This document shows positions 449-32,216 of a stretch of DNA of 37,499 bases, piece after piece. Below the pieces are notes generated by a model. It was given only the letters and a program-made list of their open reading frames with translations. It was not told the origin of the DNA and did no database searches. This DNA is from Ruminococcus sp. (GTDB lineage: Bacteria; Bacillota; Clostridia; Oscillospirales; Ruminococcaceae). The stretch's first letter is position 1. Each line of letters opens with the position of its first letter. Both the position numbers and the translations under genes were made by a program. The DNA is taken from the NCBI GenBank assembly GCA_014799735.1, contig JAAVHL010000010.1, positions 1-37,499 on the forward strand, read 5' to 3'.

Positions 449-515
449 TAGGAAAATAAAAAATGCTGCAGTTGGGCAAGTAGAGATACCGAAGTATTGT
501 TACCCATGGGAGCAT

Positions 516-564
516 TTTACCCTTATTGACAAAGTATGCCAATAAGGGTAAAGGCTCAGCCTTT
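516..564. repeat. Perfect 13-bp inverted repeat followed by a 15-bp palindrome in a divergent intergenic region
   Basis: TTTACCCTTATTG (516..528), an 11-nt spacer, then CAATAAGGGTAAA (540..552). This overlaps AAAGGCT-C-AGCCTTT (550..564). Confidence 0.6.
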
Positions 565-629
565 AGCCGGGCCTATATCTTTTTCTAAAAATTGGCAAAA
601 TTTTCAGTTTAAACTCCTTAAAGAAATTG

Positions 630-10928: not shown

Positions 10929-10954
10929 CAACCATACGAAAGGGGAGCCGCAGT

Positions 10955-11560: not shown

Positions 11561-11565
11561 AATGT

Positions 11566-11630
11566 GCCGCAGACTTTGGCGAAAACCGAAGTCTGCGGCG
11601 TTTTTGCGGGTATAGGACATTTTTTCGCGG
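11566..11630 (+). repeat. Intergenic hairpin repeat, copy A (also acts as a terminator between convergent genes)
   Basis: GCCGCAGACTTTGG-CGAAAA-CCGAAGTCTGCGGC, then GTTTTT, then GGTATAGGACATT...CGCGG. By eye it is about 80 percent identical to 17404..17468 in the same orientation. Confidence 0.65.
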
Positions 11631-11652
11631 CAGAGGGCGGTAATGTCATACT

Positions 11653-17403: not shown

Positions 17404-17468
17404 GCCGCAGACTTTGGTGAAGACCGGTATCTGCGGCGTTTATTTTTTGGTATAGGACATTCCCGCGG
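17404..17468 (+). repeat. Intergenic hairpin repeat, copy B (in the divergent promoter region upstream of sigK)
   Basis: GCCGCAGACTTTGGTGAAGACCGGTATCTGCGGCGTTTATTTTTTGGTATAGGACATTCCCGCGG. This is a degenerate copy of 11566..11630. Confidence 0.65.
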
Positions 17469-17501
17469 CGGCATAGGTTTAAATAAAGAAAGCTGTGTTA
17501 T

Positions 17502-17850
17502 ATGGAGTGGGAGAAAATGTTTACCGAACTGATAGAACTTGCGCTGGAAAATCTGCTGTATTTTGCGCTTCACCTTGAATCGGGGGGAGTGTTTCCGAAA
17601 CCGCTTTCCGCCGCCGAGGAGGAGGAGTGCTTCAGAAAAATGCACGAGGGTGACCGCAGCGCAAAAAACAAGCTGATAGAACACAATCTGAGGCTCGTGG
17701 CGCACATTATAAAGAAGTACTACAACGTCACCACCGATCAGGAGGATCTGATCTCCATCGGTACTATCGGGCTTATCAAGGCTGTTTCTACCTTTGATTA
17801 TTCCAAGAAAACGCGGTTTGCTACCTATGCTTCAAGGTGTATTGAAAATG
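17502..17850 (+). CDS. sigK: Sporulation sigma factor SigK, 5' segment (spoIVCB-like: pro-sequence to region 2.4), interrupted
   Basis: The segment reads ...FPKPLSAAEEEECFRKMHEGDRSAKNKLIEHNLRLVAHIIKKYYNVTTDQEDLISIGTIGLIKAVSTFDYSKKTRFATYASRCIEN. It then reads into 33 unrelated codons (IIPCWNTKL...) before the stop at 17948. Confidence 0.9.
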
Positions 17851-18010
17851 CTATTATACCATGTTGGAACACAAAGCTGCCGAATATGTTTCCTCTATTT
17901 TTTAAGGAAAGACAGATTTTTTCGGTGTTCGGAGAGCTTTTAAAATGATTGAAAACAATCTGTATATCCTTTACAAGCTTGAAAAGGCGGCTAATGTTTG
18001 GTGAAAATGG

Positions 18011-18045
18011 AAAAAGTCCTCGGTGCTGAACCGAGGACTTTTTAA
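18011..18045. terminator. Bidirectional terminator separating the truncated sigK 5' transcript from the end of the cargo operon
   Basis: AAAAAGTCCTCGG-TGCTGAA-CCGAGGACTTTTT, with T-runs after the stem on both strands. Confidence 0.65.
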
Positions 18046-18312
18046 ATATGGCAAAAATGTCTGTTTATAGCATTCCGATTTCCGTAAAGCGCTTACTATG
18101 GATAAGCACAGCAGCCGGGACATTTTTTCGGGCGCTTTCCTATTTTTCAATTAAAAATTTCAATGCAGAAAAATCGTTTTGTATACTTGCATAATTTTAA
18201 TTTTTACAATACGATTGATTATGAAAAACGAGATGAATTCGTTGCCGTGCAAATCAGCAGGCGCACAAGTGAATGTCTCAGCTTTCGTTTTACGTCCGCG
18301 TTTTTGTAAATC

Positions 18313-19227
18313 CTACCGCATTTGAGTTGAAAAGCTATTAATTATATTTTCGATGCCGTCCTTAAATTCCATGAGAGGCTCCCACCCCGTATCGTTCCGA
18401 AGCGCCGAAATATCAGCGCACAAAAACATGACCTGCTTCTCTCCGTATGGGATCGCGCCAAGTCCAACCCTGCCTTCGGGAGCAGCAACGCTGCGTATAT
18501 CCTCGATATATTCCGAAAGAGGTCTTGCTTTACCGCTGCCAAGGACATAAACCATGCCGTCCTTTCCTTTTTCCCCCAGCAAAGCAAATGCTTCCGCGGC
18601 GTCTCCGCTGTACAGATAATCCCAATTTTGCTCGCCCTTTGTAAATTGGGGGATTTCTCCGTTTTTAAGCTTCTTCACCGCTGACATGACCATAGTATCA
18701 TCGCCGTCGTTCGGACCGTAAACGCTAAGTATCCTTACCCAGATATGACGAAGCCCCAGCTGGTGAGCAAGGTCACGCGTCATCTGTCCTGCACAAAGCT
18801 TTGCATAGCCGTAACCGTTTTCGGGAAAAGCGGGCGTATCGGGCTTGAGTATACCCTCAACCCTTCCGTATTCCGCCTGTGAACCCGCTCCGATAAACAC
18901 CTTGCAGCCTAACCTCTTTGCCGCGGAAACAGCGTCGAGAGCATACTCCACATTTTTGTTCTGCAGGTACATATCGTTTCTTGCCGAACCGAAAGTCCCA
19001 CCCCACGCCAAATGATAGAAAACGTCATATTCACCGTCGGTTTTAAAATTATGCAGGTCTGCAAGAGAGCAGTACATGACTTCAACAAACGGTGATTTGG
19101 GAATTCGGCTGTTTCTTGTAGAATCCTCCCTTGTCAGCACAAGCACCCGTATTTCTTTTGAGATAAAATTATTTATAAGAGCCGTGCCTATTGCCCCCGT
19201 AGCTCCCGTAATTACAGCACTTTTCAT
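18313..19227 (-). CDS. NAD(P)-dependent SDR epimerase/reductase (CDP-paratose/abequose synthase-like or YerF-like 4-ketoreductase)
   Basis: It has the GATGAIG Rossmann motif and YGYAK (YxxxK). It is 304 aa, has a GAGGTAATAT RBS, and is the last gene of the operon. Confidence 0.75.
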   Translation of the reverse strand: MKSAVITGATGAIGTALINNFISKEIRVLVLTREDSTRNSRIPKSPFVEVMYCSLADLHNFKTDGEYDVFYHLAWGGTFGSARNDMYLQNKNVEYALDAVSAAKRLGCKVFIGAGSQAEYGRVEGILKPDTPAFPENGYGYAKLCAGQMTRDLAHQLGLRHIWVRILSVYGPNDGDDTMVMSAVKKLKNGEIPQFTKGEQNWDYLYSGDAAEAFALLGEKGKDGMVYVLGSGKARPLSEYIEDIRSVAAPEGRVGLGAIPYGEKQVMFLCADISALRNDTGWEPLMEFKDGIENIINSFSTQMR

Positions 19228-19230
19228 ATA

Positions 19231-21027
19231 TTACCTCAAATATTTTATACTTTCAAATTCTTCCCTCGGCAGGAACGGCGCCATATCGTCAAGGGACGGC
19301 GAAACTATTCTTCCGTCAGGCAGTATCTTCGAGGAAGATTTCGGCGCAAAATTCTGCTTCGGATCGACAATCACCTCGCATAAGCAGGGCTCGTTCCCGC
19401 TTAAAGCTTCGCTTATAATTTCGGAGCAGTCCGTTTCGCTGTCTGTCCGCATATACTTTATCCCGAACGCCTCCGCAAGCTTTCCGAAATCGGGGAAGCC
19501 CACGCCGCTGTCCCTGTCAATTCCCACAAAGGGCGGCTTGAAAAGATTGGTCTGGGTTTGTCTTATGGAATGATAACCGTTGTTGTTTATAAGAAAAAGC
19601 TTGATATTAAGCCTGTTGTGTGCTATTGCGGCAAGCTCTTGAACGTTCATCATCAGACTTCCGTCACCGTCAACGCAGATCGTCCTGCCTCCGCATACAG
19701 CCGCTCCCACCGCCGCGGGCAGGGCATAGCCCATTGCCGCACAGCCCGAATTGGCGTACATACGCTGTCCTTGCTTTATCTTTCCGCACTGATAGGTTAT
19801 AACGCTTGCGCTGCCGTTGCCGCAGACTATCTTGTCTTTCGTATCCAAATGTTCAAACAATTTCTCCATAAACACATATGGGTTAAGCAAGCCATTGCCG
19901 CCGTTATAGTAGCTTTCCTCCGCCGCAGGGTATTTTTCAACAAGTTCCCTGCACCACTTGCGCCACGGCTCATGCTTCGGCGAGGGTGTGTACGGTCTTT
20001 CGGCCAGCCTTGTCAGCAAGTCCTTAACGTCCGCGTTTACGGGCATATCCGCCTTTATCGTCGGCTTAGCAAGCTCGTTAGGGTCGATATCGACTATTAT
20101 TTTGTACGCGTTTTTTGCAAAATCGAAATGATTGTATCCGATCATGCGGATATTCAGACGGCAGCCGAGACTGATAAGCAGGTCGCAGTTCTGTACCGCA
20201 AAATTACCCGCTCTTGTGCCGACCGTTCCCGCCATGCCCGCAAAATACGGACTTTCATAGGCTATTGTATCGTTTGCGTTCCAAGCGACCGAAACAGGTA
20301 TTTTCAGCTTCTCAATGACTTTCAGGAACTCCTCCTCCGCGCCGCCGAGACGTATTCCCGTGCCTGCCAGAATAAGGGGAGCCTTTGCCTTTTGTATCTT
20401 TTCCAGAATACCGTCCGCAAGCTCGTCCGTGATCTTGGGAAGCTCCCAGAACATCTCCGCATTGGGGTCAAAGTGGATAAGCTCGTCGGTGTCTATGACC
20501 GCACCCTGAACGTCAAGGGGAATATCTATCCACACGGGACCCTTTCTGCCGTTCATTGCAAGATACAGCGCCTTTTCAAGGTGATAAGCCGTCTCTTTGG
20601 GATTTGTCAGCATTACTGCATACTTTGTCATATTCGAGACCGAGTTGATTATGTCGAACTCCTGGTCGCCAAGCTGTCTCAAATGAAGCTGGGGACAAGC
20701 CGACATGGTGGTCTCGCGCTTGACCTGACCCGAAATAACAAACATAGGAATTGAGTCCAGCCAGCCGCCCATAACTCCTGTTATGGCATTGGTTCCCCCC
20801 GGACCGCTCGTTACGCACACGGCCGCGATCTTTCCCGTCAGGCGAGCGTAGCTCTCCGCGGCGATAGCACTCGCCTGCTCGTGATGATTAAAAAAGCACT
20901 TTATCCCGCCGCAGTGTCCTATAGCATCGTTAAGATGCATAGCCCCGCCGCCTGTTATCATAAAGCAATCGGTAATGCCGTTTTTAACAAAAAATTCCGC
21001 AATATAATCCGCCGCTCTTATCTTCAT
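19231..21027 (-). CDS. Thiamine-diphosphate-dependent enzyme, acetolactate synthase large-subunit-like (YerE-like candidate)
   Basis: The protein begins MKIRAADYIAEFFVKNGITDCFMITGGGAMHLNDAI, contains TSGPGGTNAITGVMGGWLDSIPMFVISGQV, and has a C-terminal GDGS...NN ThDP motif (VDGDGSLMMNVQELA...INNNGY). The ATG at 21027 follows AAAGGA by 9 nt. The track start at 21051 is a TTG. Confidence 0.8.
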   Translation of the reverse strand: MKIRAADYIAEFFVKNGITDCFMITGGGAMHLNDAIGHCGGIKCFFNHHEQASAIAAESYARLTGKIAAVCVTSGPGGTNAITGVMGGWLDSIPMFVISGQVKRETTMSACPQLHLRQLGDQEFDIINSVSNMTKYAVMLTNPKETAYHLEKALYLAMNGRKGPVWIDIPLDVQGAVIDTDELIHFDPNAEMFWELPKITDELADGILEKIQKAKAPLILAGTGIRLGGAEEEFLKVIEKLKIPVSVAWNANDTIAYESPYFAGMAGTVGTRAGNFAVQNCDLLISLGCRLNIRMIGYNHFDFAKNAYKIIVDIDPNELAKPTIKADMPVNADVKDLLTRLAERPYTPSPKHEPWRKWCRELVEKYPAAEESYYNGGNGLLNPYVFMEKLFEHLDTKDKIVCGNGSASVITYQCGKIKQGQRMYANSGCAAMGYALPAAVGAAVCGGRTICVDGDGSLMMNVQELAAIAHNRLNIKLFLINNNGYHSIRQTQTNLFKPPFVGIDRDSGVGFPDFGKLAEAFGIKYMRTDSETDCSEIISEALSGNEPCLCEVIVDPKQNFAPKSSSKILPDGRIVSPSLDDMAPFLPREEFESIKYLR

Positions 21028-21047
21028 ACGAAGCAGTCCTTTCATGA

Positions 21048-22658
21048 TCAAATATCAAAAATACTTTCCGTAACAAACGTTATATCCCTGCAGTTAACAG
21101 CGTGCCGCCTGAAATCCGCAAAAATATCCTTTATCTCCTCGTTGAGCTCGTCCCACTTGTTGTCGGGATTAAGCGTTGGCATAAATGGATCGGCATAGCT
21201 TTCATTGTACTTTGTCTTGAAACCGTCAAACCCCGCAACAGCCGCCTTTTTTACTCCGAGCATATCCAGCATTCTGAAGCAGCATACCGCAGCGTTGTCA
21301 AAATGCTTCCAACCGCGCTTTACCACCTTGTTGAAGCTGATAATTATTTCGTCCTCATCGGGAACGCTCTTAACGGTGGAAAGGAGAATTTTTCTGAATT
21401 TCCCGAAAGCCTCTCCCTTGGCATTTTTGGCGTATTCGTACCTTGCCGCGTTTGTAAAAAGAACATAATCGTAATCATACCCGTCAAGTAAAGCGTTTAC
21501 GCCGATGACCGCAGGGGCGCGCTCCGATATATACGCAAGTACTTTCTCCCGCTCGTCCAGCGACGACTTTCCCGGCGCCACAAGCAAAGCTTCACGTCCC
21601 GAAAAATATTCTGCAAGTTTTTTTACAGCCTCGGCGTCGTCCGCATAAAAGCTTTGATTTTCAAAATATTTTTTCTCCAGAAGATCGTAGTCGTATTTTT
21701 TTCTGTCCGCAGGATCAAGCGACTCAATAATATTGCGCATATCCTTTGCCTTTGTCCTGTGATTATCGAGAAGATACGCAATATTATTAACATGACAGCC
21801 GTACATTCCCGCGATAAAATAAGGCGTTGAATATCCCCAGCTGTAGTTTTCACCGAAGTACTCCATATAAATATCGATAGCGTCCATGACCGCGTCCATA
21901 TCGTAGCCGCACCCGCATTTCCTGTTAAGAAAGCTTACCGCAAGCTCCGTGGGGGTATTGCCCGCTCCCCTGCCCATTCCGCAAAGGCTTGCGTCAATAA
22001 TGATGTCCCTGCCGCTGTCACCGAGCATATTTACAAAATTCATCGTCAGCGCAAAGGAAAGCTGCTGATTGTTGTGGGAATGAAAGCCCAGACTTATATC
22101 CTTATCCGTGTGCTTGTGAAGTATTTCCGTTATCCTCTCCAAGTCCTCGGGGTACATAGCTCCGAACGTGTCCACTATCGACAAGCCAACGGGCTTTGCT
22201 TTGTTTACCGCCTCGGCAAGACGCTTTAGGTCGTCGTCGGAATAATCCATTGTATTTGCTGCCTGAAAATAAACCCTGTAGCCCTTTTCCTTTATTTTTA
22301 AGCCAACCTCAATGCCCTCCCTGTACTTGCCGCAGGGGAACACGACCCTTACCGCGTCAACGGATTTCCCGTCGCATTGGGGTAAAAGCGACAGGTCGTA
22401 CCTGTCCCAGTCGATCATTACCGTATAGGTCAGTCCGCCGTCCTTTTTTATAAGGTACTGCTCCAGATCCTGCGGGACATGATAAAACGATGTTCCGGCC
22501 TTATGGGGACTGTTTTTCAGCCAGCCGCACTCGATTATATCTGTTCCCGCTTTCTGTAACTTTTCAATAATACCCTTTATGGAGTGTTCGCCGAACTCGC
22601 TTCCCGTGATGTATGCGCCGTCGCGCAGCGTACAATCCAAAAGCTTGATATTTCCCAT
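21048..22658 (-). CDS. DRE-TIM metallolyase (HMGL/aldolase-like) N-terminal domain fused to an uncharacterised C-terminal domain of about 200 aa
   Basis: It contains LLDCTLRDGAY, GFHSHNN (HxH metal site) and GMGRGAGNTPTE. I do not recognise the C-terminal half (LLVAPGKSSLDEREK...). Confidence 0.7.
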   Translation of the reverse strand: MGNIKLLDCTLRDGAYITGSEFGEHSIKGIIEKLQKAGTDIIECGWLKNSPHKAGTSFYHVPQDLEQYLIKKDGGLTYTVMIDWDRYDLSLLPQCDGKSVDAVRVVFPCGKYREGIEVGLKIKEKGYRVYFQAANTMDYSDDDLKRLAEAVNKAKPVGLSIVDTFGAMYPEDLERITEILHKHTDKDISLGFHSHNNQQLSFALTMNFVNMLGDSGRDIIIDASLCGMGRGAGNTPTELAVSFLNRKCGCGYDMDAVMDAIDIYMEYFGENYSWGYSTPYFIAGMYGCHVNNIAYLLDNHRTKAKDMRNIIESLDPADRKKYDYDLLEKKYFENQSFYADDAEAVKKLAEYFSGREALLVAPGKSSLDEREKVLAYISERAPAVIGVNALLDGYDYDYVLFTNAARYEYAKNAKGEAFGKFRKILLSTVKSVPDEDEIIISFNKVVKRGWKHFDNAAVCCFRMLDMLGVKKAAVAGFDGFKTKYNESYADPFMPTLNPDNKWDELNEEIKDIFADFRRHAVNCRDITFVTESIFDI

Positions 22659-22659
22659 T

Positions 22660-24009
22660 TTATTTTACGCTCCTTAAAGCATCCGTTACAACCTCAGCCG
22701 TATAGTCAAGCATTTCCGGACTCATTCCCGGGTAAACGCCTATCCAGAACGTGTTGTTCATAACAAAATCGGTGTTCGCCAGTCCTCCCGATATACGATA
22801 ACCGTCCGTATCCCGCATTTCGTCAAAGCATGGGTGTTTTGTCAGATTGCCGCTGAAAAGCAGCCTTGTCTGAATATTGTGTTCCTCAATATATTTTGTA
22901 ACAGCGTTCCTGCTTATGCCGCTTTCGGGTCTTAGCGAGATAACAAATCCGAACCATGACGGGATACTGTTTTCGGCTGCTTCGGGAAGAATTATCTTAT
23001 CCTCCTCAGGCTTCAGAGCCGAATACAGCTTTTCCCAGTTGCTCCTGCGCTTCACAATAAAATCGGGAAGCTTTTTAAGCTGCTCGCAGCCTATTGCAGC
23101 CTGCATATCCGTCGCTTTAAGATTGTAGCCGAAATGGCTGTACACATATTTATGATCGTAGCCTTTTGGAAGCTCGCCGAATTGTCCCTCAAACCTGTGT
23201 CCGCAGAAATTGTCTTTGCCCGACGGACAAACGCAGTCCCTGCCCCAGTCCCTGAAAGAAAGTATCAGCCTGCTCAAAAGCGGATCGTTCGTATAAACGC
23301 AGCCGCCCTCTCCCATGGTGATGTGGTGCGGCGGATAAAAGCTGCTTGTGCCGATGTCGCCCCATGTTCCCGTGTATTTTTCGATCCCGTCACAGGCGTA
23401 CTTAGAGCCCAAAGCGTCGCAGTTATCCTCGAGAAGCCATAAATTGTTCCTGTCGCAGAATTCCCTTACGGCTTTCAGGTCAAAGGGATTTCCCAGCGTG
23501 TGCGCGATCATTACCGCTTTTGTTTTTTCTGACAAAGCCGCTTCAAGCTTTGTAACATCAATATTGTACTGCGGAACCGTCACGTCTATAAAAACAGGAA
23601 CAGCCCCGTACTGAATTATGGGAGTAACAGTTGTGGGAAAACCGCAGGCCGCCGTAATGACCTCGTCCCCGCGCTTTATGCGCCGCTCGCCAAGCTCCTT
23701 AGCAGTAAGCGCAGAAAAAGCGATCAGATTTGCCGACGAGCCGCTGTTCACAAGGTGAGTGTGCTTTACGCCGAGGAAGTCTGCAAAATCCTTTTCAAAC
23801 CGTTCGGCAAACCGTCCCGTAGTCAGCCAGAAATCAAGCATAGCGTCCGCAAGAGCGCACATCTCCTTTTCGTCATAGACCCTTGCCGCATAAGGTATTC
23901 TGTCTCCATTTGAAAAACCGCCGCTGTCCTTTTTGAAATCATGATAATATTCCGAAACGGCTTTTTTTATAAATTCTCTTGCTTCCGCCTCGGTTTCCCA
24001 ATTCTTCAT
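22660..24009 (-). CDS. rfbH: CDP-4-keto-6-deoxy-D-glucose 3-dehydratase (E1; RfbH/DdhC/AscC family)
   Basis: It contains DFWLTTGRFAERFEKDFADFLG, NSGSSANL, ACGFPTTVTPIIQ and FYPPHHITMGEGG (His in place of the usual PLP Lys), plus the Cys cluster GRDCVCPSGKDNFCGHRF. The ATG at 24009 overlaps the rfbG stop (ATGA). The upstream extension in the track is an artefact. Confidence 0.88.
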   Translation of the reverse strand: MKNWETEAEAREFIKKAVSEYYHDFKKDSGGFSNGDRIPYAARVYDEKEMCALADAMLDFWLTTGRFAERFEKDFADFLGVKHTHLVNSGSSANLIAFSALTAKELGERRIKRGDEVITAACGFPTTVTPIIQYGAVPVFIDVTVPQYNIDVTKLEAALSEKTKAVMIAHTLGNPFDLKAVREFCDRNNLWLLEDNCDALGSKYACDGIEKYTGTWGDIGTSSFYPPHHITMGEGGCVYTNDPLLSRLILSFRDWGRDCVCPSGKDNFCGHRFEGQFGELPKGYDHKYVYSHFGYNLKATDMQAAIGCEQLKKLPDFIVKRRSNWEKLYSALKPEEDKIILPEAAENSIPSWFGFVISLRPESGISRNAVTKYIEEHNIQTRLLFSGNLTKHPCFDEMRDTDGYRISGGLANTDFVMNNTFWIGVYPGMSPEMLDYTAEVVTDALRSVK

Positions 24010-25070
24010 TTTGACATATCCTCCAAAAATTCCTCGATCTCCCTGTCCATTTCCTTTGAAACGTCCCCGCCGGAAAGCTGAACCTTTGTAAAACGGCATA
24101 CTTCCTCCATAGCCTTTTCAACGTGCCATACAGGCTTCCACCCGAAAACCGATTTAAGTCTCGAACAGTCCAGCTTCAGGAAATTTGCCTCTTTTGGAGC
24201 ATTGCTTTCCGAACGGTTTTCCCACGCCGCGCCCTCGCCCCAGCATTTGCAGAACAGTTCCGTAAGCTCCGCCGTTGTGATACAGTCTCCCTCATCGGGA
24301 CCCACATTATAGCAGCCCGCGGTTTCGGGACGTTCATACTGTCCCTGCACGATAATGAGGTACGCCGTCAAGGCTTCAAGAACGTGCTGATAGGGACGTA
24401 CCGAGTGAGGATTTCTCACCGCAATTTTTCTGCCGTCGGTCACAGCCCTTATGCAGTCGGGAACTATTCTGTCCGCGGAAAAATCTCCGCCGCCGATAAC
24501 GTTTCCCGCTCTTGCGGTTGAGACGCCGACGCTGTTCAAATAACAATTTTTATAAGTACCTGTCACAAGCTCCGAACAGGACTTTGAATTTGAGTACGGG
24601 TCAAAGCCGTTCAGCTCCTCGTTTTCTCTGTAGCCCCATTCCCACTCCCTGTTTAAGTATACCTTGTCCGTGGTAACGTTAAGAAAAGACCTTACCGAAT
24701 TGCTTTCCCTAATACATTCAAGAATATTGACGGTGCCCATAACGTTTGTTTCGTAGGTATAAGCAGGATTTTTATAGCTTTCCTTGACAATAGGCTGAGC
24801 CGCAAGATGAAAGACCATCTCGGGCCGTGCTTTTTCAAAAGCGGCTTTGAGGCTTTCCAAGTCCCTTATGTCTCCTGTTACGGAAACCATATTTCCTGCA
24901 ATGTCCGAAATATCAAACAGCGAGGGCTTCGCGGGAGCAAGAGCATAGCCTGTCACGTCAGCGCCCGCTTTTAAAAGAAATCTGCAAAGCCAGCTTCCCT
25001 TAAAGCCTGTGTGACCCGTTATAAAAACACGTTTGCCTTTATAAAAGGACAAATCAAAACTGTTTATCAC
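24006..25070 (-). CDS. rfbG: CDP-glucose 4,6-dehydratase
   Basis: The protein reads (V)INSFDLSFYKGKRVFITGHTGFKGSWL...YSNSK...RAGNVIGGGD...RPYQHVLE. The GTG at 25070 lies 6 nt after GGGAGGA and 2 nt after the rfbF stop. The track starts at 25094/25085 overlap rfbF. Confidence 0.88.
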   Translation of the reverse strand: MINSFDLSFYKGKRVFITGHTGFKGSWLCRFLLKAGADVTGYALAPAKPSLFDISDIAGNMVSVTGDIRDLESLKAAFEKARPEMVFHLAAQPIVKESYKNPAYTYETNVMGTVNILECIRESNSVRSFLNVTTDKVYLNREWEWGYRENEELNGFDPYSNSKSCSELVTGTYKNCYLNSVGVSTARAGNVIGGGDFSADRIVPDCIRAVTDGRKIAVRNPHSVRPYQHVLEALTAYLIIVQGQYERPETAGCYNVGPDEGDCITTAELTELFCKCWGEGAAWENRSESNAPKEANFLKLDCSRLKSVFGWKPVWHVEKAMEEVCRFTKVQLSGGDVSKEMDREIEEFLEDMSK

Positions 25071-25072
25071 CG

Positions 25073-25855
25073 TCAGTCCTCCCATTTTTTCCAAGGCGCC
25101 TGTCCAAGCGTCAGAAGCTTTTCAAGCATATCCATTTCCCGTTTCGTATCCATGCACTGCCAGAAGCCCTTGTGCATATACGACATAAGCTGTCCCTCTT
25201 CCGCAAGCTTTTCAAGGGGTTCTTTTTCAAATACTGTCTCGTCACCCTCGATATAATCAAAAATCTCGGGATTTAAAACCATGTACCCTGCATTTATAAG
25301 CGCGCCGTCGCTGAGGTTTTTCTCACGGAAGGAGCGCACCGCGTTGTCTCCGCCGACGTCAAGCACACCCTTTTGCTGCTCAAGCGTGACCGCCGTAAGG
25401 GTAGCGATTTTTCCGTGGGAAGCGTGAAACTCCACAAGCTTTTTTATATCAACGTCGCACACTCCGTCGCCGTATGTCATCATAAACGGCTCGTCCCCGA
25501 TATATCTGCGCACCCGCTTTATTCTTCCGCCTGTCATGGTTTTAAGGCCTGTGTCAACTATAGTGACCTTCCACGGCTCGCAGTGCTGACTGTGTATAGT
25601 GGTCTGTTCCGTGCCGCTTGTGAAATCAAACGTAACGTCGCTGTTATGGAGGAAATAATCCGCAAACCATTCCTTTATCATATGCTGTTTATAGCCCGCA
25701 CAAATGATAAATTCGTTAATGCCGTAATGGTAATATTCCTTCATAATATGCCATAAAATAGGCTTTCCGCCGATTTCTATCATAGGCTTCGGCTTTAAGC
25801 TCGACTCCTCGGAAATTCGGGTTCCGTATCCTCCCGCCAGCAATACAGCTTTCAT
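25073..25855 (-). CDS. rfbF: Glucose-1-phosphate cytidylyltransferase
   Basis: The protein begins MKAVLLAGGYGTRISEESSLKPKPMIEIGGKPILWHIMKEYYHYGINEFIICAGYK and contains MTGGRIKRV and GFWQCMDT. It aligns with Salmonella RfbF, as I remember that sequence, along the whole length. Confidence 0.92.
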   Translation of the reverse strand: MKAVLLAGGYGTRISEESSLKPKPMIEIGGKPILWHIMKEYYHYGINEFIICAGYKQHMIKEWFADYFLHNSDVTFDFTSGTEQTTIHSQHCEPWKVTIVDTGLKTMTGGRIKRVRRYIGDEPFMMTYGDGVCDVDIKKLVEFHASHGKIATLTAVTLEQQKGVLDVGGDNAVRSFREKNLSDGALINAGYMVLNPEIFDYIEGDETVFEKEPLEKLAEEGQLMSYMHKGFWQCMDTKREMDMLEKLLTLGQAPWKKWED

Positions 25856-25878
25856 ATTATAAAATCATTCCCTTGAAA

Positions 25879-27459
25879 TTATTTTTTGCATATGTATTTA
25901 TAGAAATCCGATTCAGTATAATTTCTTGCAATAAAATTATTTTTTATCTCTATCTCGTCCATGGATTCCGTTTCCTCAAGATCGGCCACTGTTTCAATTT
26001 TTAAAACTGTTCTGCTGATCTCGCGGTAAAATTCCACCAAAGGAGTTACAGCTCCCAGGATAAAAATAAACGACGACACAAACAGCAGCGTTTTTTTGCG
26101 TATAAATTCATCAAGACCCTTTATTTCGCCCTTTGCCGGAACACTGTCAGTAAATGCTTTTATAAATTCAACCGCAAGATAAATGATCGGCGGTATCGAC
26201 GCTCTCATCGTAAAATCTCCGTCCATTCCCAAACGGAACAGCGGTAAAAGCAGCAGCATGATAATTGTCCCGATAAATTCGGGAGCCGCTTTTTTCTTTT
26301 TTATTTTCAAGTAAATCAGAATGATCGCAGTATAAAATCCGACCTCGACCAAAATAAAAAAAATATACAACAAAAGCTTTGAAATAATTCCCGAAACATT
26401 CCCCTCGGCAAACGGCTCCAGCCAGATGTCATTCACACGAAAGCCCACGTTGGCTTTTCCCGTTTCATAATAAGCATCGTTTGAAGCGATCGCGTTTGAA
26501 AAATAATACAAATAATACACAGGAAGCACAGAAACGCACGCCAGAATATTCTGGAATGAAAGTACGTTTTTCACCGCCTCCGAAAGCCTGCCGCCGCGTA
26601 TCATTCCAACGCTTATAACAGCCGCTTTTATCACGCACATCAAAACTATCCCGATAAACGGCAGCGGTCCGAACGGAAGCGCAAGCAGTCCGAGAAAAGC
26701 GAAATTCTTAACGCTGCGCTCGTTTATTATGCAAAAAGTAACAAGCCATATTGCTATTGTTTGATTATACACCCAGAACAAGCAGGTGGTAAACGAGCTG
26801 TACTGAATAATATAGTATGCCCACCATTCCAGGTGATTGTCGAATGTATTCGCTGTCACAGCGTTTCCCACCAGATCAAGCCCGCTGAAAAAAATAAACA
26901 GAAAAACTGTCAGCATAATATGCGGTTTTTTCTTTGAAAACGTTAGAATGACCACCAGCAGCAGCGAAAGAAACACTCCTATGCTGCTCCATATCAGCAA
27001 AAAGACATTTCCCGCCGCATAGCCTGCCGATACCGAACCCGAAACCGTGTAAAAAATTTTGCCCACCAGCGCGGGAGGCATCCAATGCGCAATATAATAT
27101 GACAGCATTGAACCGTCAGAATACACCACAGGCCAAGGCATTTTTATCAAATCGCGAAAGATCGCATTCCTTATCGTATTATCGCTTGACTGATGGATAA
27201 ACCCTCCGTGTCCCGCAAGAAAGCACCATGCCAAAGAGACCGCGCCGATAATTATCAGTGCTTTTTTTGACACAACAGCATACGTTTTTTCGCCGTCACG
27301 CTTTCGGGAGCTTTTCCAAAAGAAAAAGCAGGCCGCCGCAAGCAGCGCGGAAAATACTGCCGCCCATAGAGCCGAAAGCCATCCGAAAAAGAAAATAAAG
27401 ATCGGGACAGCCACATATATTACCGCGGCGGATCTGATACGGTTATATGAAATTTTCAT
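25879..27459 (-). CDS. Polytopic membrane protein (about 12-14 TM), candidate GT-C-type / GtrC-like glycosyltransferase or polymerase
   Basis: A very hydrophobic 526-aa ORF preceded by a GGGGAGAA RBS. It lies between the GT2 gene and rfbF. The function is inferred from position only. Confidence 0.5.
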   Translation of the reverse strand: MKISYNRIRSAAVIYVAVPIFIFFFGWLSALWAAVFSALLAAACFFFWKSSRKRDGEKTYAVVSKKALIIIGAVSLAWCFLAGHGGFIHQSSDNTIRNAIFRDLIKMPWPVVYSDGSMLSYYIAHWMPPALVGKIFYTVSGSVSAGYAAGNVFLLIWSSIGVFLSLLLVVILTFSKKKPHIMLTVFLFIFFSGLDLVGNAVTANTFDNHLEWWAYYIIQYSSFTTCLFWVYNQTIAIWLVTFCIINERSVKNFAFLGLLALPFGPLPFIGIVLMCVIKAAVISVGMIRGGRLSEAVKNVLSFQNILACVSVLPVYYLYYFSNAIASNDAYYETGKANVGFRVNDIWLEPFAEGNVSGIISKLLLYIFFILVEVGFYTAIILIYLKIKKKKAAPEFIGTIIMLLLLPLFRLGMDGDFTMRASIPPIIYLAVEFIKAFTDSVPAKGEIKGLDEFIRKKTLLFVSSFIFILGAVTPLVEFYREISRTVLKIETVADLEETESMDEIEIKNNFIARNYTESDFYKYICKK

Positions 27460-27479
27460 ATCGTTCTCCCCAAAAAATT

Positions 27480-28442
27480 TTATTCTTTCGACTCATCGCT
27501 TTCATCACAGTCAAAATTTATACGTTTTTCTTCTATAACAAGCGGTCTGTTCATTATCCTCTGGTTAATGCTCATTATGTATTCTCCCAGCAATCCAATA
27601 AAAATAAGCTGTATTCCGCCGAGCACGAAAACTCCGATAAGCGTCGGCGCATTGCCCAGAGCAAAGCTGTCCCAGTTTATAAGCTTTAATATAAGGTACG
27701 CAAAGGCAATGACCATGCTTATAATTGAAATAATAAAGCCCGCAATGGTGCATACCCTCATTCCAACCTTTGTGTACGCCGTAAAGCTCAGCATTGCCGC
27801 GTCGTAAAGAGTATACCAGTTATTGCTGGTTTTGCCCGCACGCCTTTTCTGCTGTTCGTATGTAATTTCCTTGCGCTTAAAGCCAAGCTCCGCAACGATA
27901 CCCCTCAAAAACGGCGTAGGGTCGTTAAGTCTGCGCAGGACGTCCACAAAATCCTTGTCATAAAGACCCGTTCCCGTAAAATGCTCTATCTGTTCAACGT
28001 CGGATATTTTTTTGATGACCTTATAGTAGCACGTTCTGCAAAACCGCATTACCGGATTTTCGCGGCTCTGCGCCTTTATCGGACAAACTATTTTATATCC
28101 CTGTTCCCACTCGTGAACAAGCCTGGGGATAAGCTCCACAGGATCCTGAAAGTCGGCGCACATTGATATCGTGCAGTCTCCCGTAGTCTGGAGGATACCG
28201 TAATAAGGCGAATTGAACTGCCCGAAATTGCGGGCGTTGAATATCGCTTTTATCCTCTTGTTTTTTTCACAAAGTCCGATAAGCTTCTGACGGGTACTGT
28301 CCGTCGAATTGTTGTCGATAAAAACTATCTCGTAATCGTACCCGCTCAGGAACTCGTTAAACTGACCTATGATAGCCTCGCTGAGAGGGACAACGTTCTC
28401 CTCTTCATTATAACACGGGATCAGGACAGATATTTTTTTCAC
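27480..28442 (-). CDS. GT2 polyprenyl-phosphate glycosyltransferase (GtrB/CsbB/ArnC-like)
   Basis: The protein begins MKKISVLIPCYNEEENV, contains FIDNNSTD and ADFQDP (DxD-type), and has two C-terminal TM helices. It is 320 aa. Confidence 0.85.
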   Translation of the reverse strand: MKKISVLIPCYNEEENVVPLSEAIIGQFNEFLSGYDYEIVFIDNNSTDSTRQKLIGLCEKNKRIKAIFNARNFGQFNSPYYGILQTTGDCTISMCADFQDPVELIPRLVHEWEQGYKIVCPIKAQSRENPVMRFCRTCYYKVIKKISDVEQIEHFTGTGLYDKDFVDVLRRLNDPTPFLRGIVAELGFKRKEITYEQQKRRAGKTSNNWYTLYDAAMLSFTAYTKVGMRVCTIAGFIISIISMVIAFAYLILKLINWDSFALGNAPTLIGVFVLGGIQLIFIGLLGEYIMSINQRIMNRPLVIEEKRINFDCDESDESKE

Positions 28443-28484
28443 AGAAGAACCCCCTATTTAAGCTCACGTAATATCCTACTTTTA

Positions 28485-28907
28485 TTATTTCATCGCCCAG
28501 TTTTTATTTATAAAGTAATTGAGCGGAACTGTTATAAGCAAGCCGAGCAGCGGCGCTATGAACTCAGAAATTTTGATCACATCTACAAATATGTAAAGGA
28601 TCGCCGTACCAATAAACAGATTGCTTCCGTATGCCGCAAAGGTTTTGAAAAGCGTTTTGGCTTTTTCATCGGTTTTCTTAAAGACAAATCTGCTGTTCCA
28701 GAAATATGAATTAAGCACGCTGACTACAAAGCCGACAATGTTTCCTATGATATAAAGCTTTGGGTCGAAAACGATAAAGATGTAATATATTCCCAGCGAG
28801 ATGACCGTATTGGAAACCCCGACAATACAAAATTTTATAAAACGTATCAGCTCTTGCCACTGCTTATCGGAAATATTAAGCCGTTCCTTTATTTTTTCAA
28901 GAAGCAT
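28485..28907 (-). CDS. GtrA-family small membrane protein (lipid-linked sugar flippase candidate)
   Basis: From the ATG at 28907 it is 140 aa. It contains LIRFIKFCIVGVSNTVISLGIYYIF and has four TM segments. The track start at 28982 is a TTG and adds 25 unlikely residues. Confidence 0.75.
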   Translation of the reverse strand: MLLEKIKERLNISDKQWQELIRFIKFCIVGVSNTVISLGIYYIFIVFDPKLYIIGNIVGFVVSVLNSYFWNSRFVFKKTDEKAKTLFKTFAAYGSNLFIGTAILYIFVDVIKISEFIAPLLGLLITVPLNYFINKNWAMK

Positions 28908-29004
28908 AAATATCTTTTTCAAATAATCACCTGCGTACACAGTCACACAAACGCTTAATACAGCGTTTGCAGGAATTAACAAAAATATGTCTATACATAC
29001 TTAT

Positions 29005-29032
29005 ATTATACACATTTTTTGCCGTTTGTCAA
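29005..29032 (-). promoter_or_regulatory. Sigma-A-type promoter of the nine-gene cargo operon
   Basis: On the minus strand, TTGACA (29027..29032), a 16-nt spacer, then TATAAT (29005..29010). It is followed by a structured leader of about 90 nt (CAAACGC-N8-GCGTTTG at 28949..28970). Confidence 0.6.
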
Positions 29033-29240
29033 TCGTATTGGGCGAATTGCCGCTGACGCAAAGTAAAAGCTATACAAGTTGATTAGAGCAAACGTGTTGG
29101 CGGCAAACCTGTTAATGTATGGTGTCCCCTTAAATTACGAGCCGAATAATCCTGCGTTACAGTTGTATATTATTTATATGAACAGCGGCGAATAATACGC
29201 TGTCAAATCAAATACTATTGATATTAAGAGGAGGCTTCAC

Positions 29241-29408
29241 ATGAAAATTATAGTACATCTTCCATCGGATAAAAATAATAAGGATGAGCTTGAAAAAAGA
29301 GTTGCGGAAGTACACGGCGACAGTGCGGTCGCATACATAAAAAAACAGCCATGGACTAAAGAACAAAAGCTATTGATAATAAAATCAATTGCAGGAAAAT
29401 GCTCATAA
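29241..29408 (+). CDS. Small 55-aa protein, unknown function (candidate recombination directionality factor or regulator)
   Basis: My own translation is MKIIVHLPSDKNNKDELEKRVAEVHGDSAVAYIKKQPWTKEQKLLIIKSIAGKCS. A strong AAGAGGAGG RBS lies 6 nt upstream and an intrinsic terminator follows immediately. It is below the 60-aa track cutoff. Confidence 0.55.
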   Translation: MKIIVHLPSDKNNKDELEKRVAEVHGDSAVAYIKKQPWTKEQKLLIIKSIAGKCS

Positions 29409-29415
29409 AATAATC

Positions 29416-29451
29416 GAGAGACGGTGTCAATACCGTCTCTCTTTATTTTTT
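29416..29451 (+). terminator. Intrinsic terminator after the 55-aa ORF
   Basis: GAGAGACGGT-GTCAAT-ACCGTCTCTC followed by TTTATTTTTT. Confidence 0.7.
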
Positions 29452-29778
29452 ATTGTTCAGATGAACATCGTTCAGATACAGCGATATTTTTTTGTATATT
29501 TCAACTGCATCGAGAGAGCCATCAAAAATTTCCTTATATTCGGGATTTTTTAAAAATTCAAATAAATATAGCTTTCGTAATTTTTCTTGCCAAACTGCTC
29601 TATGATACAGGAGTATCTGCATAACAGATTTGACTATATTTATTCAAGGGAAAGCAATATCCACAAGTTTGACCGTAATAAATTTATACGTCAATCTGTT
29701 GGCGAGGAGCCGGAGGATTCCGAATATAAAGAATTGACAACTGTACGAATTCCATTTAACAACAAGGAGGAGTAGTGT

Positions 29779-29913
29779 ATGTTAGTTAAAGTATCGCCAT
29801 TGTCAGACGAAAGCGTTCATTTTTGGAACTATGAAAGATTTAAAGAGCATCACAAGGCAAAAGTAAAGTCATGGGACACTATGATATTGACGTTGAAATT
29901 GATCAAGCTTTGA
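29779..29913 (+). CDS. Small 44-aa ORF, in frame with ORF 29587..29775 across a single TAG (possible gene remnant)
   Basis: AAGGAGGAG lies 6 nt before the ATG. The translation is MLVKVSPLSDESVHFWNYERFKEHHKAKVKSWDTMILTLKLIKL. It is in the same frame as the upstream 62-aa ORF, separated by TAG-TGT. Confidence 0.3.
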   Translation: MLVKVSPLSDESVHFWNYERFKEHHKAKVKSWDTMILTLKLIKL

Positions 29914-30020
29914 TAAACTCATTAGGGCTGAAGTGTGAGCATTTACTTTCAAAACAGTAATATATTGCTATATTCTGTTTCCATATGTTATTTAAAAAAA
30001 TCCAAATTTTACTTTTCATC

Positions 30021-30071
30021 TTTACATTTTAATTCCATAGTGATATAATAAATGATAGTATATATCACTAT
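30021..30071 (+). promoter_or_regulatory. Sigma-A-type extended -10 promoter of the recombinase gene, embedded in an 11-bp perfect inverted repeat
   Basis: TTTACA (30021..30026), a 17-nt spacer, then TGATATAAT with TATAAT at 30044..30049. The inverted repeat is ATAGTGATATA (30037..30047) and TATATCACTAT (30061..30071). Confidence 0.5.
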
Positions 30072-30088
30072 AGAAGGGGATTTTAAAT

Positions 30089-31789
30089 ATGCCAAAAGAT
30101 GACGTCCGCACAATTGCCATATACTCCCGCAAATCCAAATTCACAGGCAAAGGCGAAAGCATAGAAAACCAAATCGAGCTGTGCAGACAATACATATCCT
30201 CGCACTACAGCCAAGAAGAAGCAACCGCAGCAATCGTCTACGAGGACGAAGGCTTCTCCGGCGGAAACACTGACAGACCGCAGTTCCAGCAGATGATGTC
30301 CGACGCGAGAGCGAAAAAAATTTCTGCGGTGGTATGCTACCGTCTTGACCGTGTGAGCAGAAATATCAGCGACTTTTCGGGACTTATCCAAGAGCTTGAA
30401 CGTCTGGGCATTTCCTTTATCTCTATCCGCGAGGACTTCGACACCTGCTCTCCCATGGGACGGGCAATGATGTACATAGCTTCGGTTTTCTCCCAGCTTG
30501 AACGTGAAACCATTGCCGAGCGCATACGGGACAATATGCACGAGCTTGCCAAAACTGGTCGCTGGCTTGGCGGCACAACTCCCACGGGGTACGCTTCGGA
30601 AAGCGTTTCTCATGTTACCGTGGACGGAAAATCAAAAAAAGCCTGCAAGCTTTCGCTTATCGAAAAGGAAGCGGATATTGTCAGGCTTATCTTTTCAAAA
30701 TTCCTTGAAACCAATTCCCTCACACAGACAGATACTTTTTTACTGCAAAATCATATCACGACCAAAAACGGACGGAATTTTACACGGTTTGCAATAAAAA
30801 ATATTCTTACAAATCCTGTGTATATGATTGCCGACGAAGCCGCCTACAGATATCTTTCCGAAAGCGGTGCTGAACTTTTTTCTGAAAGATCGGACTTTGA
30901 CGGCATATGCGGAATAATGGCGTACAACCGCACCGAGCAGAAGCACGGCGAAGCCCACAAGATACGTCCCGAAGACGAATGGATAGTCGCCGTGGGAAAG
31001 CACCCCGGAATAATCAGCGGTTCTGACTGGATAAAGGCGCAGACCTATCTTGAACAAAACCGCTCAAAAAGCTTCCGTAAAACCCGCAGCAACACCGCTT
31101 TGCTGTCGGGGATACTTCTCTGCGGTAACTGCGGTGACTATATGCGTCCCAAGCTTACCAAGCGCACAAACAAGGACGGTGAGCTTGTCTACACATACCT
31201 CTGCAGCACAAAGGAAAGAAGCCATTCCGAACGCTGCGCTATTCCCAACATCAGCGGAAATCTTCTTGACCGTATCGTCTGTACCGAAATCAAAAAGCTT
31301 TCCGAGGACAGTTCCGCTTTTGTAAAGTCTGTTGAAAAGGCAAAGAAAGATATTTTATCGGACAAAGGCGACTTTTCGGAGAACATTGAAGAGTTGAAAA
31401 AAAGCTTTTCCGAAAACGAAAAAGCAATTGAAAATCTTACAAAAAGCTTGTCGGAGAATTCGGAAAGCTCTGCGGCGGGATACATTATAAAAGAAATGGA
31501 ACGTCTGCACAAGAAAAACGACGGACTGAAATCCCAGATCGACGAGCTTGAAAATATCAGAAAGCGGCAGATCATAAACGGCAGAGAGTTCGACATACTC
31601 AGAGATATGCTTTCAAGCTTTGCGGGCACGGTGGACATTATGTCCGCGGAGCAGAAAAGAGCAGCGATACGCGCCTGTGTAAGGAAGATAGTCTGGGACG
31701 GCGAAAACGTTCATATATATCTTTACGGCTCGGACGATGACGATACAAAGAATACTCTTGAAATTCCGCTGAGTGAGTATAGCAAATGA
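30089..31789 (+). CDS. spoIVCA: Large serine recombinase (SpoIVCA-like site-specific recombinase)
   Basis: The N-terminal resolvase domain is IAIYSRKSKFTGKGESIENQ...VVCYRLDRVSRN, with the catalytic Ser in YSRKS. It also has a recombinase domain, a zinc-ribbon-like LCGNCGDYM...YLCSTK, and a C-terminal coiled coil. It is 566 aa and abuts the right junction. Confidence 0.9.
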   Translation: MPKDDVRTIAIYSRKSKFTGKGESIENQIELCRQYISSHYSQEEATAAIVYEDEGFSGGNTDRPQFQQMMSDARAKKISAVVCYRLDRVSRNISDFSGLIQELERLGISFISIREDFDTCSPMGRAMMYIASVFSQLERETIAERIRDNMHELAKTGRWLGGTTPTGYASESVSHVTVDGKSKKACKLSLIEKEADIVRLIFSKFLETNSLTQTDTFLLQNHITTKNGRNFTRFAIKNILTNPVYMIADEAAYRYLSESGAELFSERSDFDGICGIMAYNRTEQKHGEAHKIRPEDEWIVAVGKHPGIISGSDWIKAQTYLEQNRSKSFRKTRSNTALLSGILLCGNCGDYMRPKLTKRTNKDGELVYTYLCSTKERSHSERCAIPNISGNLLDRIVCTEIKKLSEDSSAFVKSVEKAKKDILSDKGDFSENIEELKKSFSENEKAIENLTKSLSENSESSAAGYIIKEMERLHKKNDGLKSQIDELENIRKRQIINGREFDILRDMLSSFAGTVDIMSAEQKRAAIRACVRKIVWDGENVHIYLYGSDDDDTKNTLEIPLSEYSK

Positions 31790-32216
31790 AATCCTAATGC
31801 ACTTCCGTTCACTGAAAAAGTCCGCGGGAGACATATACTTCGACGAGCCCATCGACACCGACAAGGAGGGCAACCAGCTTACCCTGATAGACATTATTGC
31901 CGAGGACGACGGCATACTGGACAAAATTGACCTGAGCATAAAATCGGAGCAGCTTTACCGCTTTATAGGAGAATGTCTTGACGAGCGGGAGATCACCGTA
32001 ATAAAACGCCGCTACGGACTTTACGGCTGTATGCCTCAGACCCAGCGGGAGGTTGCTGATTCGCTGGGGATATCCCGTTCTTATGTTTCGAGAATAGAGA
32101 AAAAAGCTTTGCAGACGCTTAAAAAGAAATACGACCGTACTTCGATCTTCGGGTCTTCGGGTTCGGCGGGTCAGACAGGTCAGGCAAAGGAGGGAGGAAA
32201 GAGTTCCGAAAAATAA
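31784..32216 (+). CDS. sigK: Sporulation sigma factor SigK, 3' segment (spoIIIC-like: regions 3 to 4.2)
   Basis: From the core onward it reads (N)EILMHFRSLKKSAGDIYFDEPIDTDKEGNQLTLIDII...REVADSLGISRSYVSRIEKKALQTLKK. The four codons upstream of the core (VSIA) belong to the element and the recombinase 3' end. Confidence 0.9.

Follow-up and report, generated by a model that had tools for sequence, protein, structure and literature searches.

Is a sporulation gene that lies in two parts nearly 14 kb apart a broken gene, or one that is put back together during development? The question is raised by a stretch of 37,499 nucleotides (positions 1 to 37,499 of contig JAAVHL010000010.1, Ruminococcus sp., assembly GCA_014799735.1; here called the window), in which the sporulation sigma factor gene sigK is interrupted by DNA encoding a large serine recombinase and a nine-gene glycan operon. 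We conclude that the window probably holds a sigK-intervening, or skin-type, element that is excised developmentally in the mother cell, and we infer the mother-cell specificity of this excision from analogy and from evolutionary constraint.

The two parts of sigK join in frame

The open reading frames (ORFs) 17502..17948 and 31773..32216, both on the plus strand as originally predicted, hold the two parts of the gene. The 5′ part (17502..17850, plus strand) extends from the pro-sequence through region 2.4 and comprises codons 1-116 and base 1 of codon 117, after which its reading frame continues through 32 unrelated codons (not 33, as the original prediction had it). The 3′ part (31788..32216, plus strand) starts at codon 117 (EILMH...) and holds regions 3-4. 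The insert splits sigK between codons 116 and 117, leaving both parts co-oriented, and the same AAATG core is found at each end, at 17846..17850 in attL and 31784..31788 in attR, with the predicted crossover dinucleotide AA at 17847-17848. The left junction reads ...TGTATTGAAAATG|CTATTATACC... and the right junction ...GAGTATAGCAAATG|AAATCCTAATG..., and the core-to-core distance between the two AAATG copies is 13,938 bp. Recombination at the core is predicted to rebuild an attB junction reading ...GTGTATTGAAAATGAAATCCTAATGC... and an attP junction reading ...GAGTATAGCAAATGCTATTATACCATG....

Joining 17502..17850 to 31789..32216 in silico gave a 777-nt reading frame that encodes a 258-aa protein, in agreement with the predicted in-frame join. 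The joined protein matched NF004471, the SigK model of NCBIfam, from position 5 to position 230 of its 235 with 298.9 bits (cutoff 252), fell slightly below the cutoff of TIGR02846 (289.1 bits, cutoff 298.65), and scored about 70 bits lower with SigE models than with the SigK model. It has an N-terminal extension that matches pro-sigma-K models. Neither part contains stops or frameshifts, and as far as the window extends a search found no second sigK-like sequence, intact or otherwise.

Comparison with an intact ortholog (locus L001) points in the same direction. The 5′ part is 99% identical to the same part of the intact gene at the protein level, and the split gene as a whole differs from it by 1 non-synonymous and 46 synonymous substitutions (ratio of non-synonymous to synonymous rates, dN/dS, 0.005), a pattern that argues against a decaying pseudogene, with the qualification that some of this divergence may have arisen on the intact lineage or before the insertion. 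Upstream of the gene, at 17452..17479 on the plus strand, is a promoter (ATA-GGACA...N...CATAGGTT) that is likely of the mother-cell, sigma-E/K plus SpoIIID type, judging from the consensus sequences of Bacillus subtilis and Clostridioides difficile. The promoter block is invariant among the window, L001, and L005, and the DNA further upstream diverges.

A search with the joined protein recovered intact SigK proteins 92-98% identical to it, and the site proposed for an empty attB is uninterrupted in relatives from three related lineages (L001, L217, L002-L005). The alignment of L001 to the window stops at 17850 and picks up again at 31777, the two segments overlapping by 12 bp, and the right flank (genes for a ClpC-like ATPase, rubrerythrin, DUF1284, and BioY) is syntenic between the window and the empty sites. 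In another assembly (L104) the same attL junction and cargo are present at 100% identity, and L101 has the cargo at 98.9% identity. Because of these empty sites and additional copies, the sequence comparisons indicate that the split-sigK arrangement is real and recurrent, and is neither chance nor an assembly artifact.

A recombinase family associated with one codon of sigK

The backbone of the element consists of its att arms, a conserved 55-aa ORF (orf55), and the recombinase. The recombinase gene (30089..31789, plus strand) encodes a SpoIVCA-like large serine recombinase of 566 aa, with an N-terminus reading AIYSRKS and the domain order Resolvase (PF00239), Recombinase (PF07508), and Zn_ribbon_recom (PF13408); this domain set and the distance between the cores bear out the predicted 13,938-bp insert with its recombinase. 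The protein belongs to phage integrase family phrog_95, its sequence matches in PDB are the TP901-1, SprA, and PhiC31 integrases, and the nearest phage integrases are 37-46% identical to it. Against copies in sister elements its dN/dS is 0.06-0.10.

The recombinase gene ends within the attR core, at the right edge of the insert, where its TGA stop arises from the joining to sigK (AAA-TGA-AAT) and is contributed by the sigK side of attR. In the excised circle (30089..31789 + 17851..17905) the reading frame would gain 18 codons (...SEYSK-CYYTMLEHKAAEYVSSIF). Because the stop codon comes from the sigK side, the integration state would change the recombinase C-terminus. A similar read-through across attP, in a 606-aa ORF, is seen in L194, a free form described below.

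Close relatives of the recombinase (82-93% identity) all lie directly upstream of a sigK 3′ fragment. Among 80 relatives from reference genomes (57-93% identity), 67 have a sigK 3′ fragment with the same start residue (EILMH) 0-130 bp downstream; the remaining 13 comprise three directly next to an inverted sigK 5′ half, three for which the contig leaves no room, and seven without sigK nearby. The predicted skin-type architecture finds comparative support in these 67 loci and in the empty sites. Hosts of the sigK-linked relatives include Oscillospiraceae, Lacrimispora, Intestinimonas, Flavonifractor, [Clostridium] viride, and metagenome-assembled genomes (MAGs) of Paenibacillaceae.

Some members of the family are arranged differently. 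In L050 (2828..2983), L056 (2519..2776), and L083 (11741..11878) the recombinase stands beside the inverted sigK 5′ half, which has the same end codon; this fits a B. subtilis-like orientation at the same site, and also fits the near-palindromic inner attP (ATAGCA-AA/TT-TGCTAT, the TT version being found in L146). The closest reference recombinase, 93% identical (L020, 11690..12000, MAG MGBC137711), has the usual end, ...TATAGCAAATGAAAT, and is followed by a secreted-protein gene and no sigK, which could reflect a mis-join, integration at a secondary site, or loss of the sigK 3′ part. In L026 a contiguous sigma factor gene with a CIENEILMH stretch (11044..11664; 43-54% identity) lies 8 kb from a recombinase and sigK 3′ fragment; this gene, sigE or else a second intact sigK, bears on the caveat of a second copy.

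Attachment sites and free forms

The left end of the element (17851..18339) begins with about 20 bp of P′ arm, CTATTATACCATGTTGGAA, and continues as AT-rich non-coding DNA (36% GC) with no homology to L100, a chromosomal locus considered below; at the right end the P arm, ...CCGCTGAGTGAGTATAGC, precedes the attR core. Family-wide, the element-side arms read ...GAG(G/T)ATAGC(A/G)AAT on the right and GCTATCCTATCAxAACGGC on the left, and the reconstructed attP is an imperfect palindrome of about 21 bp centered on a non-palindromic AA. In the window the arms of the attP dyad (TAGCA-AA-TGCTA) match at 11/20 positions, the family consensus showing the dyad much more clearly, and the symmetry of the window attB is weak (7/20). 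An inverted-repeat finder run on the junction regions returned nothing useful, the dyad being visible only in the reconstructed attP.

Both sigK halves were found in 16 loci, with element sizes of 4.8-15.6 kb. A contiguous attP beside a relative of the recombinase was found in two metagenome contigs, L194 and L146, the former also carrying an orf55 homolog, so the predicted attP exists in nature, in distant family members. Matches to the attP pattern ATAGCAAATGCTATNNTANCA numbered 13 in viral and 99 in metagenome sequences, nearly all of them chance; a relative of the recombinase or of orf55 accompanied the pattern in only 6 loci, none of which is this element or a close sister.

Sites resembling attP (...GTGTCACA...ATAGCAAATGCTATGCTA...) were also observed in L198 (2583..2603), L141 (1040..1060), L138 (231..251), and L148 (3402..3422), where they lie 0.75-3 kb upstream of integrated recombinase genes with an orf55 homolog in between. 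They may mark where tandem or nested elements meet, or the bounds of mini-elements of about 2.5 kb that contain only orf55 and int.

A candidate directionality factor

The original prediction saw only a few tiny ORFs besides the recombinase and the glycan operon. Small ORFs are indeed present, and one of them, not singled out at the time, is a conserved gene: orf55 (29241..29408, plus strand) has a ribosome-binding site, is followed by an intrinsic terminator (29416..29441, plus strand) in a terminator search, and encodes a 55-aa basic protein. The other candidates (29443..29622 on the minus strand, 29587..29775, 29779..29913, and the ORFs of the left end) were set aside as unsupported, with no homolog in the sister loci or families.

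Homologs of orf55 in sister elements are 49-85% identical to it, and an iterative hidden Markov model search located homologs in 35 loci, including all 16 complete elements (16/16). With dN/dS of 0.13-0.21 the gene is under purifying selection. Searches of Pfam, PHROGs, and PDB sequences with orf55 gave no match, and a single-sequence model (predicted local distance difference test score, pLDDT, 72) has three helices and no meaningful fold match. In distant relatives the homolog is located next to attL, or is divergent from int; because of these positions, int and orf55 would flank attP after circularization, a layout that has been described for SPbeta and phi3T (PMC6957869). Co-occurrence, position, and the promoters of its homologs make orf55 the best candidate for the recombination directionality factor (RDF) of the element.

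The promoters suggest how such a factor might be used. The recombinase has a sigma-A type promoter with an extended -10 (30021..30049, plus strand; TTTACA, 17 nt, TGaTATAAT), in which TGATATAAT is invariant across six sister loci. Outside the close family, 18 of 24 distinct upstream regions of orf55 homologs contain ATA(C)GGACA-N-CATA(C/T)A at -47..-65. A looser form of the motif occurs about once per kb on both strands, so that chance alone would give about 0.07 per region; the 18 regions include several close Lacrimispora relatives and represent roughly ten independent lineages. Our interpretation of this motif is a promoter of the mother-cell type that includes a SpoIIID-like box; the conserved sigK promoter of the host itself is of the same form (ATAGGACATTCCCGCGGCGGCATAGG). 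In the C. difficile element skinCd the integrase is constitutive and sigma-A dependent, and a sigma-E/SpoIIID-controlled RDF sets the timing (PMC5025042). Because the recombinase promoter in the window is likewise of sigma-A type, excision would be timed by a small accessory factor.

Two further observations concern this gene and its promoter motif. The largest element (L057, 15.6 kb) has two orf55 copies. In the window, the only other strict ATA-GGACA-N-CATA match in non-sigK sequence (ATACGGACAACAGCTGACAACCATA; 10912..10936, plus strand) is just upstream of an ORF of about 201 aa (~10955..11560) that has no Pfam family and may be a mother-cell sporulation gene.

The cargo is a captured glycan operon

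The cargo, a segment of 10.7 kb on the minus strand (18340..29034), runs from a promoter to the last of nine genes, all in the same orientation. The promoter (29005..29032; TTGACA, 16 nt, TATAAT) matches the sigma-70 consensus at 12/12 positions, so the description of a nine-gene glycan operon driven by a vegetative-type promoter holds. The first genes encode a GtrA-family small membrane protein, a putative flippase component (28485..28982; PF04138, 2e-24), and a GtrB/PgfS/ArnC-like GT2 polyprenyl-phosphate glycosyltransferase (27480..28442; Pfam Glycos_transf_2, with PgfS and ArnC matches below cutoff). The third encodes a 526-aa polytopic membrane protein (25879..27459) with no Pfam or NCBIfam match. 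Its AlphaFold2 model (pLDDT 93.6) has as its sole high-probability PDB fold matches ArnT, AftD, PglB, STT3, and Emb, which are weak (E >= 9e-3, template modeling score 0.33-0.40), and from this predicted fold the protein is probably a GT-C-fold glycosyltransferase. It belongs to a family of at least 247 proteins for which there is no Pfam or NCBIfam model, and in which D92, R96, D102, D194, and E210 are invariant. Two components of a Gtr-type three-component system, GtrA and GT2, are present by domain, and the third is represented by the weak GT-C-like fold matches.

The remaining six genes resemble a nucleotide-sugar pathway. Glucose-1-phosphate cytidylyltransferase (RfbF, 25073..25855; TIGR02623, 381 bits, cutoff 300), cytidine diphosphate (CDP)-glucose 4,6-dehydratase (RfbG, 24006..25094; TIGR02622, 415.7 bits, cutoff 278), and CDP-6-deoxy-4-keto-glucose 3-dehydrase (RfbH or E1, 22660..24099; NF011936, 705 bits, cutoff 423) are all above their equivalog cutoffs. 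These are followed by a 536-aa HMGL-like, ErwI-like pyruvate aldolase (21048..22658; Pfam HMGL-like, with a partial match to 4-hydroxy-2-oxovalerate aldolase), a YerE/ErwE-like thiamine diphosphate (ThDP)-dependent carboligase (19231..21051; three TPP_enzyme domains, and scores far below all acetolactate synthase cutoffs), and a nicotinamide adenine dinucleotide-dependent epimerase/reductase that is a candidate for the YerF/ErwF-like side-chain reductase (18313..19227; Pfam Epimerase, 9e-40). In domain scans the last three are the expected families in the expected order of the published scheme for the acyl-branched sugars yersiniose, erwiniose, and caryophyllose, from which the role of the carboligase is also taken (PMC9306805). 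The operon is predicted to encode a pathway to a CDP-linked, acyl-branched dideoxy sugar, together with GtrA, GT2, and a GT-C-like transferase.

Comparison of the window with other genomes suggests where this cargo came from. Positions 18340..29037 are 93.3% identical in DNA sequence to a chromosomal operon of a Ruminococcus sp. MAG (L100), with the homology limited on one side just outside the -35 hexamer and on the other about 25 nt inside the last gene. Since the promoter is inside the shared segment, it came in together with the operon. The nine genes recur in identical order as an ordinary chromosomal operon both in L100, where a ferredoxin-like gene and a WYL regulator are neighbors, and in L102, where the neighbors are an extracytoplasmic function sigma factor and pilus genes. 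Immediately beyond the cargo block in the window is a remnant of a DUF5906 (primase/helicase-like) gene, the last ~20 codons and stop (29090..29149, plus strand), which aligns to the 3′ end of the full gene in the sister element L010; in sister elements the DUF5906 gene precedes orf55. From the homology limits and this remnant, the block from promoter to last gene therefore appears to have replaced a replication-type module of the ancestral element.

Five other cargos are found in close sister elements: ABC (ATP-binding cassette) exporters with MarR; YqaJ, DUF5906, AAA_14, and DUF2971; a tyrosine integrase with dockerin, transglutaminase, and cadherin-like proteins; DUF5906 with AAA_14; and DUF5906 with a 1928-aa protein. 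None of the sister elements carries the glycan genes. As originally proposed, there are no phage structural, packaging, or lysis genes in the element: the integrase is the sole PHROG match, and the other large ORFs are the glycan genes. An Rfam scan of the window gave no match.

Outside the element, at 470..566 of the window (plus strand), is a non-coding repeat of about 100 nt, with copies in L006 and L017 (~9801..9928) and L019 (222..313, reverse strand). It is 77-88% identical to the DNA that immediately precedes the recombinase promoter in sister elements with ABC transporters, and it folds into a long hairpin (z = -3.3) whose stem has paired changes from one copy to another. A terminator module is one possible identity for it, a small dispersed repeat another.

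Proposed cycle and alternative explanations

In the cycle we propose, the element would be integrated in the vegetative cell and in the forespore, with sigK silent and the glycan operon expressed like a chromosomal operon. RfbF, RfbG, and RfbH would produce CDP-4-keto-3,6-dideoxyhexose, to which the aldolase, the ThDP carboligase, and the reductase would attach an acyl-derived branch; GT2 would then charge polyprenyl phosphate with the sugar, GtrA would aid flipping, and the GT-C-like protein would move the sugar onto a wall polymer or protein. In the mother cell, the recombinase and a directionality factor, for which orf55 is the best candidate, would recombine attL with attR at the AA dinucleotide, freeing a circle that bears attP and restoring an intact pro-sigma-K gene. 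The rearranged chromosome would be lost with the mother cell, and the element and its glycan operon would be inherited via the spore.

Several observations weigh against parts of this scheme. In the window, no clean sigma-E/K promoter motif was found for either orf55 or the recombinase: the window and its five closest sisters are without a CATA -10 upstream of orf55, the sequence there reading AATACTAT with a spacing that is not conserved, and the single sigma-E-like match close to the recombinase (29962) lacks conservation in the sisters. The candidacy of orf55 as RDF draws on co-occurrence, position, and promoters only, and the protein is without sequence or fold similarity to known RDFs. 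No attB or attP product with this element's own sequence was observed, and the attP search of viral and Joint Genome Institute metagenome contigs recovered only more distant family members. Flavonifractor and Oscillibacter, genera in the family list, are described as non-spore-forming (bioRxiv 10.1101/2022.02.25.481979). In the cargo, no recognizable E3 reductase (RfbI/AscD-type) is present among the nine operon genes; it may be encoded elsewhere in the genome.

The alternative that survives best is an ordinary integrative island that uses sigK as a safe landing site and excises stochastically or in response to a signal (stress or transfer) instead of on a program, spores being formed only where it happened to have been excised. 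The strong, constitutive type of the recombinase promoter would suit an island, as would the lack, in the window orf55, of the CATA-type promoter of its distant relatives, and the turnover of cargo on near-identical backbones together with the free attP forms speaks for a mobile lifestyle. The phage SPbeta, moreover, responds to both stress and sporulation (PMC6957869). We nevertheless consider an island of this kind unlikely in view of the family-wide fidelity to one codon of a gene used only in the mother cell and the mother-cell-type promoters on orf55 homologs in many lineages, and all experimentally studied sigK, gerE, and spsM elements excise in the mother cell.

Less probable again is a dead end: an element that has ceased to excise, a sigK that is a pseudogene, and a lineage that is asporogenous or on the way to it. 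In its favor are the lack of any direct sign of excision, the fact that sporulation is not known for many gut Oscillospiraceae, and the close MAG L020, whose 93%-identical recombinase has no sigK after it. The window speaks against decay, however: the sigK parts are intact and differ from the intact ortholog almost entirely at synonymous sites (46 against 1), purifying selection acts on the recombinase and orf55, both of them intact, the cores are identical, the arms match the family consensus, and the sigK promoter block is conserved. That a glycan locus was joined to sigK fragments by an assembly chimera is scarcely credible, even for a metagenome-type assembly with a cargo 93% identical to another MAG's chromosomal locus, as the attL junction and the cargo recur together in a different assembly (L104), L101 has the cargo at near identity, the attR side is common to many sister loci, the junctions fall exactly at the family att arms and not at repeats, and the DUF5906 3′ remnant and orf55 link the cargo to the backbone.

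Relation to known intervening elements

Elements with the architecture of the one in the window have been published before. Fifteen sigK-interrupting elements of 2.6-48 kb have been described in Firmicutes genomes, in which a SpoIVCA-like recombinase is "usually immediately upstream of spoIIIC" and no other gene is common to them (bioRxiv 10.1101/2022.02.25.481979). The window element has exactly the layout of skin elements such as that of Ruminiclostridium cellulolyticum (7.4 kb; Galperin 2022). It differs from these in its host, an uncultured mouse-gut member of the Oscillospiraceae, and in its cargo, a complete glycan operon captured from a chromosome. Whereas that survey, which covered all skin types, reported no second shared gene, orf55 is common to 16/16 complete elements of the recombinase sub-family to which the window belongs.

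The C. difficile element skinCd (14.6 kb, with recombinase CD1231 and RDF CD1234) is similar in size to the window element, and in both the recombinase is co-oriented with sigK, has its 3′ end at the junction, and has a sigma-A promoter (PMC5025042, PMC3442830). In contrast to the window element, skinCd is phage-like and is reported at a different position in sigK, and the C. difficile sigK is without a pro-sequence, whereas the window SigK has an N-terminal extension. The two small proteins also differ, CD1234 being a 72-aa acidic protein and orf55 a 55-aa basic one.

The target codon in the window is probably the same as that of the B. subtilis element skinBs (48 kb, SpoIVCA and Skr), in the opposite orientation. 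The B. subtilis core, AATGA (PMC10745906), fits the window stretch GAAAATGAAAT that encodes IEN|EI. In skinBs, and by prediction in the window, the sigK parts are joined by a large serine recombinase at a 5-bp core with imperfect inverted repeats of about 21 bp (PMC5025042). Unlike the window element, skinBs is a defective prophage in which spoIVCA lies beside the 5′ half in the opposite orientation under sigma-E control, and skr overlaps spoIVCA (PMC6957869).

Intervening elements that are not phages have also been published, including island IV in sigK of B. cereus bv. anthracis (22 kb, carrying a restriction-modification system of type I; PMC10745906) and gin in gerE (28.6 kb; PMC5595907). 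Like the window element, these are of the developmentally excised class, have a large serine recombinase, lack phage structural genes, and carry "accessory" cargo. They differ in insertion site and recombinase lineage, and their cargo consists of defense and DNA-metabolism genes, whereas that of the window is a biosynthetic operon also found on the chromosomes of relatives.

Phage gtrABC serotype-conversion cassettes place GtrA, a GT2 enzyme, and a large membrane transferase on an integrating element, from which they are expressed when integrated. The window module is unlike them in being tied to a six-gene CDP-sugar pathway, in its Gram-positive host and non-phage element, and in the occurrence of a nearly identical operon on chromosomes elsewhere. 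The suggestion that a glycan pathway is new as the cargo of such an element stands to the extent that no report of one was found in the literature searched, within the limits of that search; the architecture and the existence of non-phage elements had already been published, and the novelty is smaller than was implied.

Implications

The element is one member of a very large, already published kind, and its interest lies in its host-derived glycan cargo, the turnover of cargo at one codon, a family-wide small ORF that is a candidate RDF, and a recombinase stop codon supplied by the host. A more ambitious view, which we regard as doubtful, is that the int/orf55/att backbone is a cargo-swapping platform at one sigK codon that, in these gut Oscillospiraceae, acquires whole chromosomal operons (in this case a surface-glycan operon that varies among strains, with its promoter) and moves them between strains, a non-phage "serotype conversion" of the spore germline that is removed from the terminal mother cell, and that orf55 represents a new, family-wide class of RDF with sigma-E/SpoIIID-type promoters.

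If it is excised as we propose, the element would be a well-documented case of a developmentally excised element that carries an adaptive, host-derived biosynthetic operon instead of phage or defense genes. A single sigK-targeting backbone is, moreover, seen with no fewer than six different cargos among closely related gut bacteria. There are also consequences for annotation, since sigK in many MAGs of Oscillospiraceae and Lachnospiraceae will be called as two fragments or as a pseudogene, though it is probably functional. Finally, in a very large recombinase family whose directionality factor is missing, orf55 is a concrete candidate that can be tested, and such a factor could serve serine-integrase tools.

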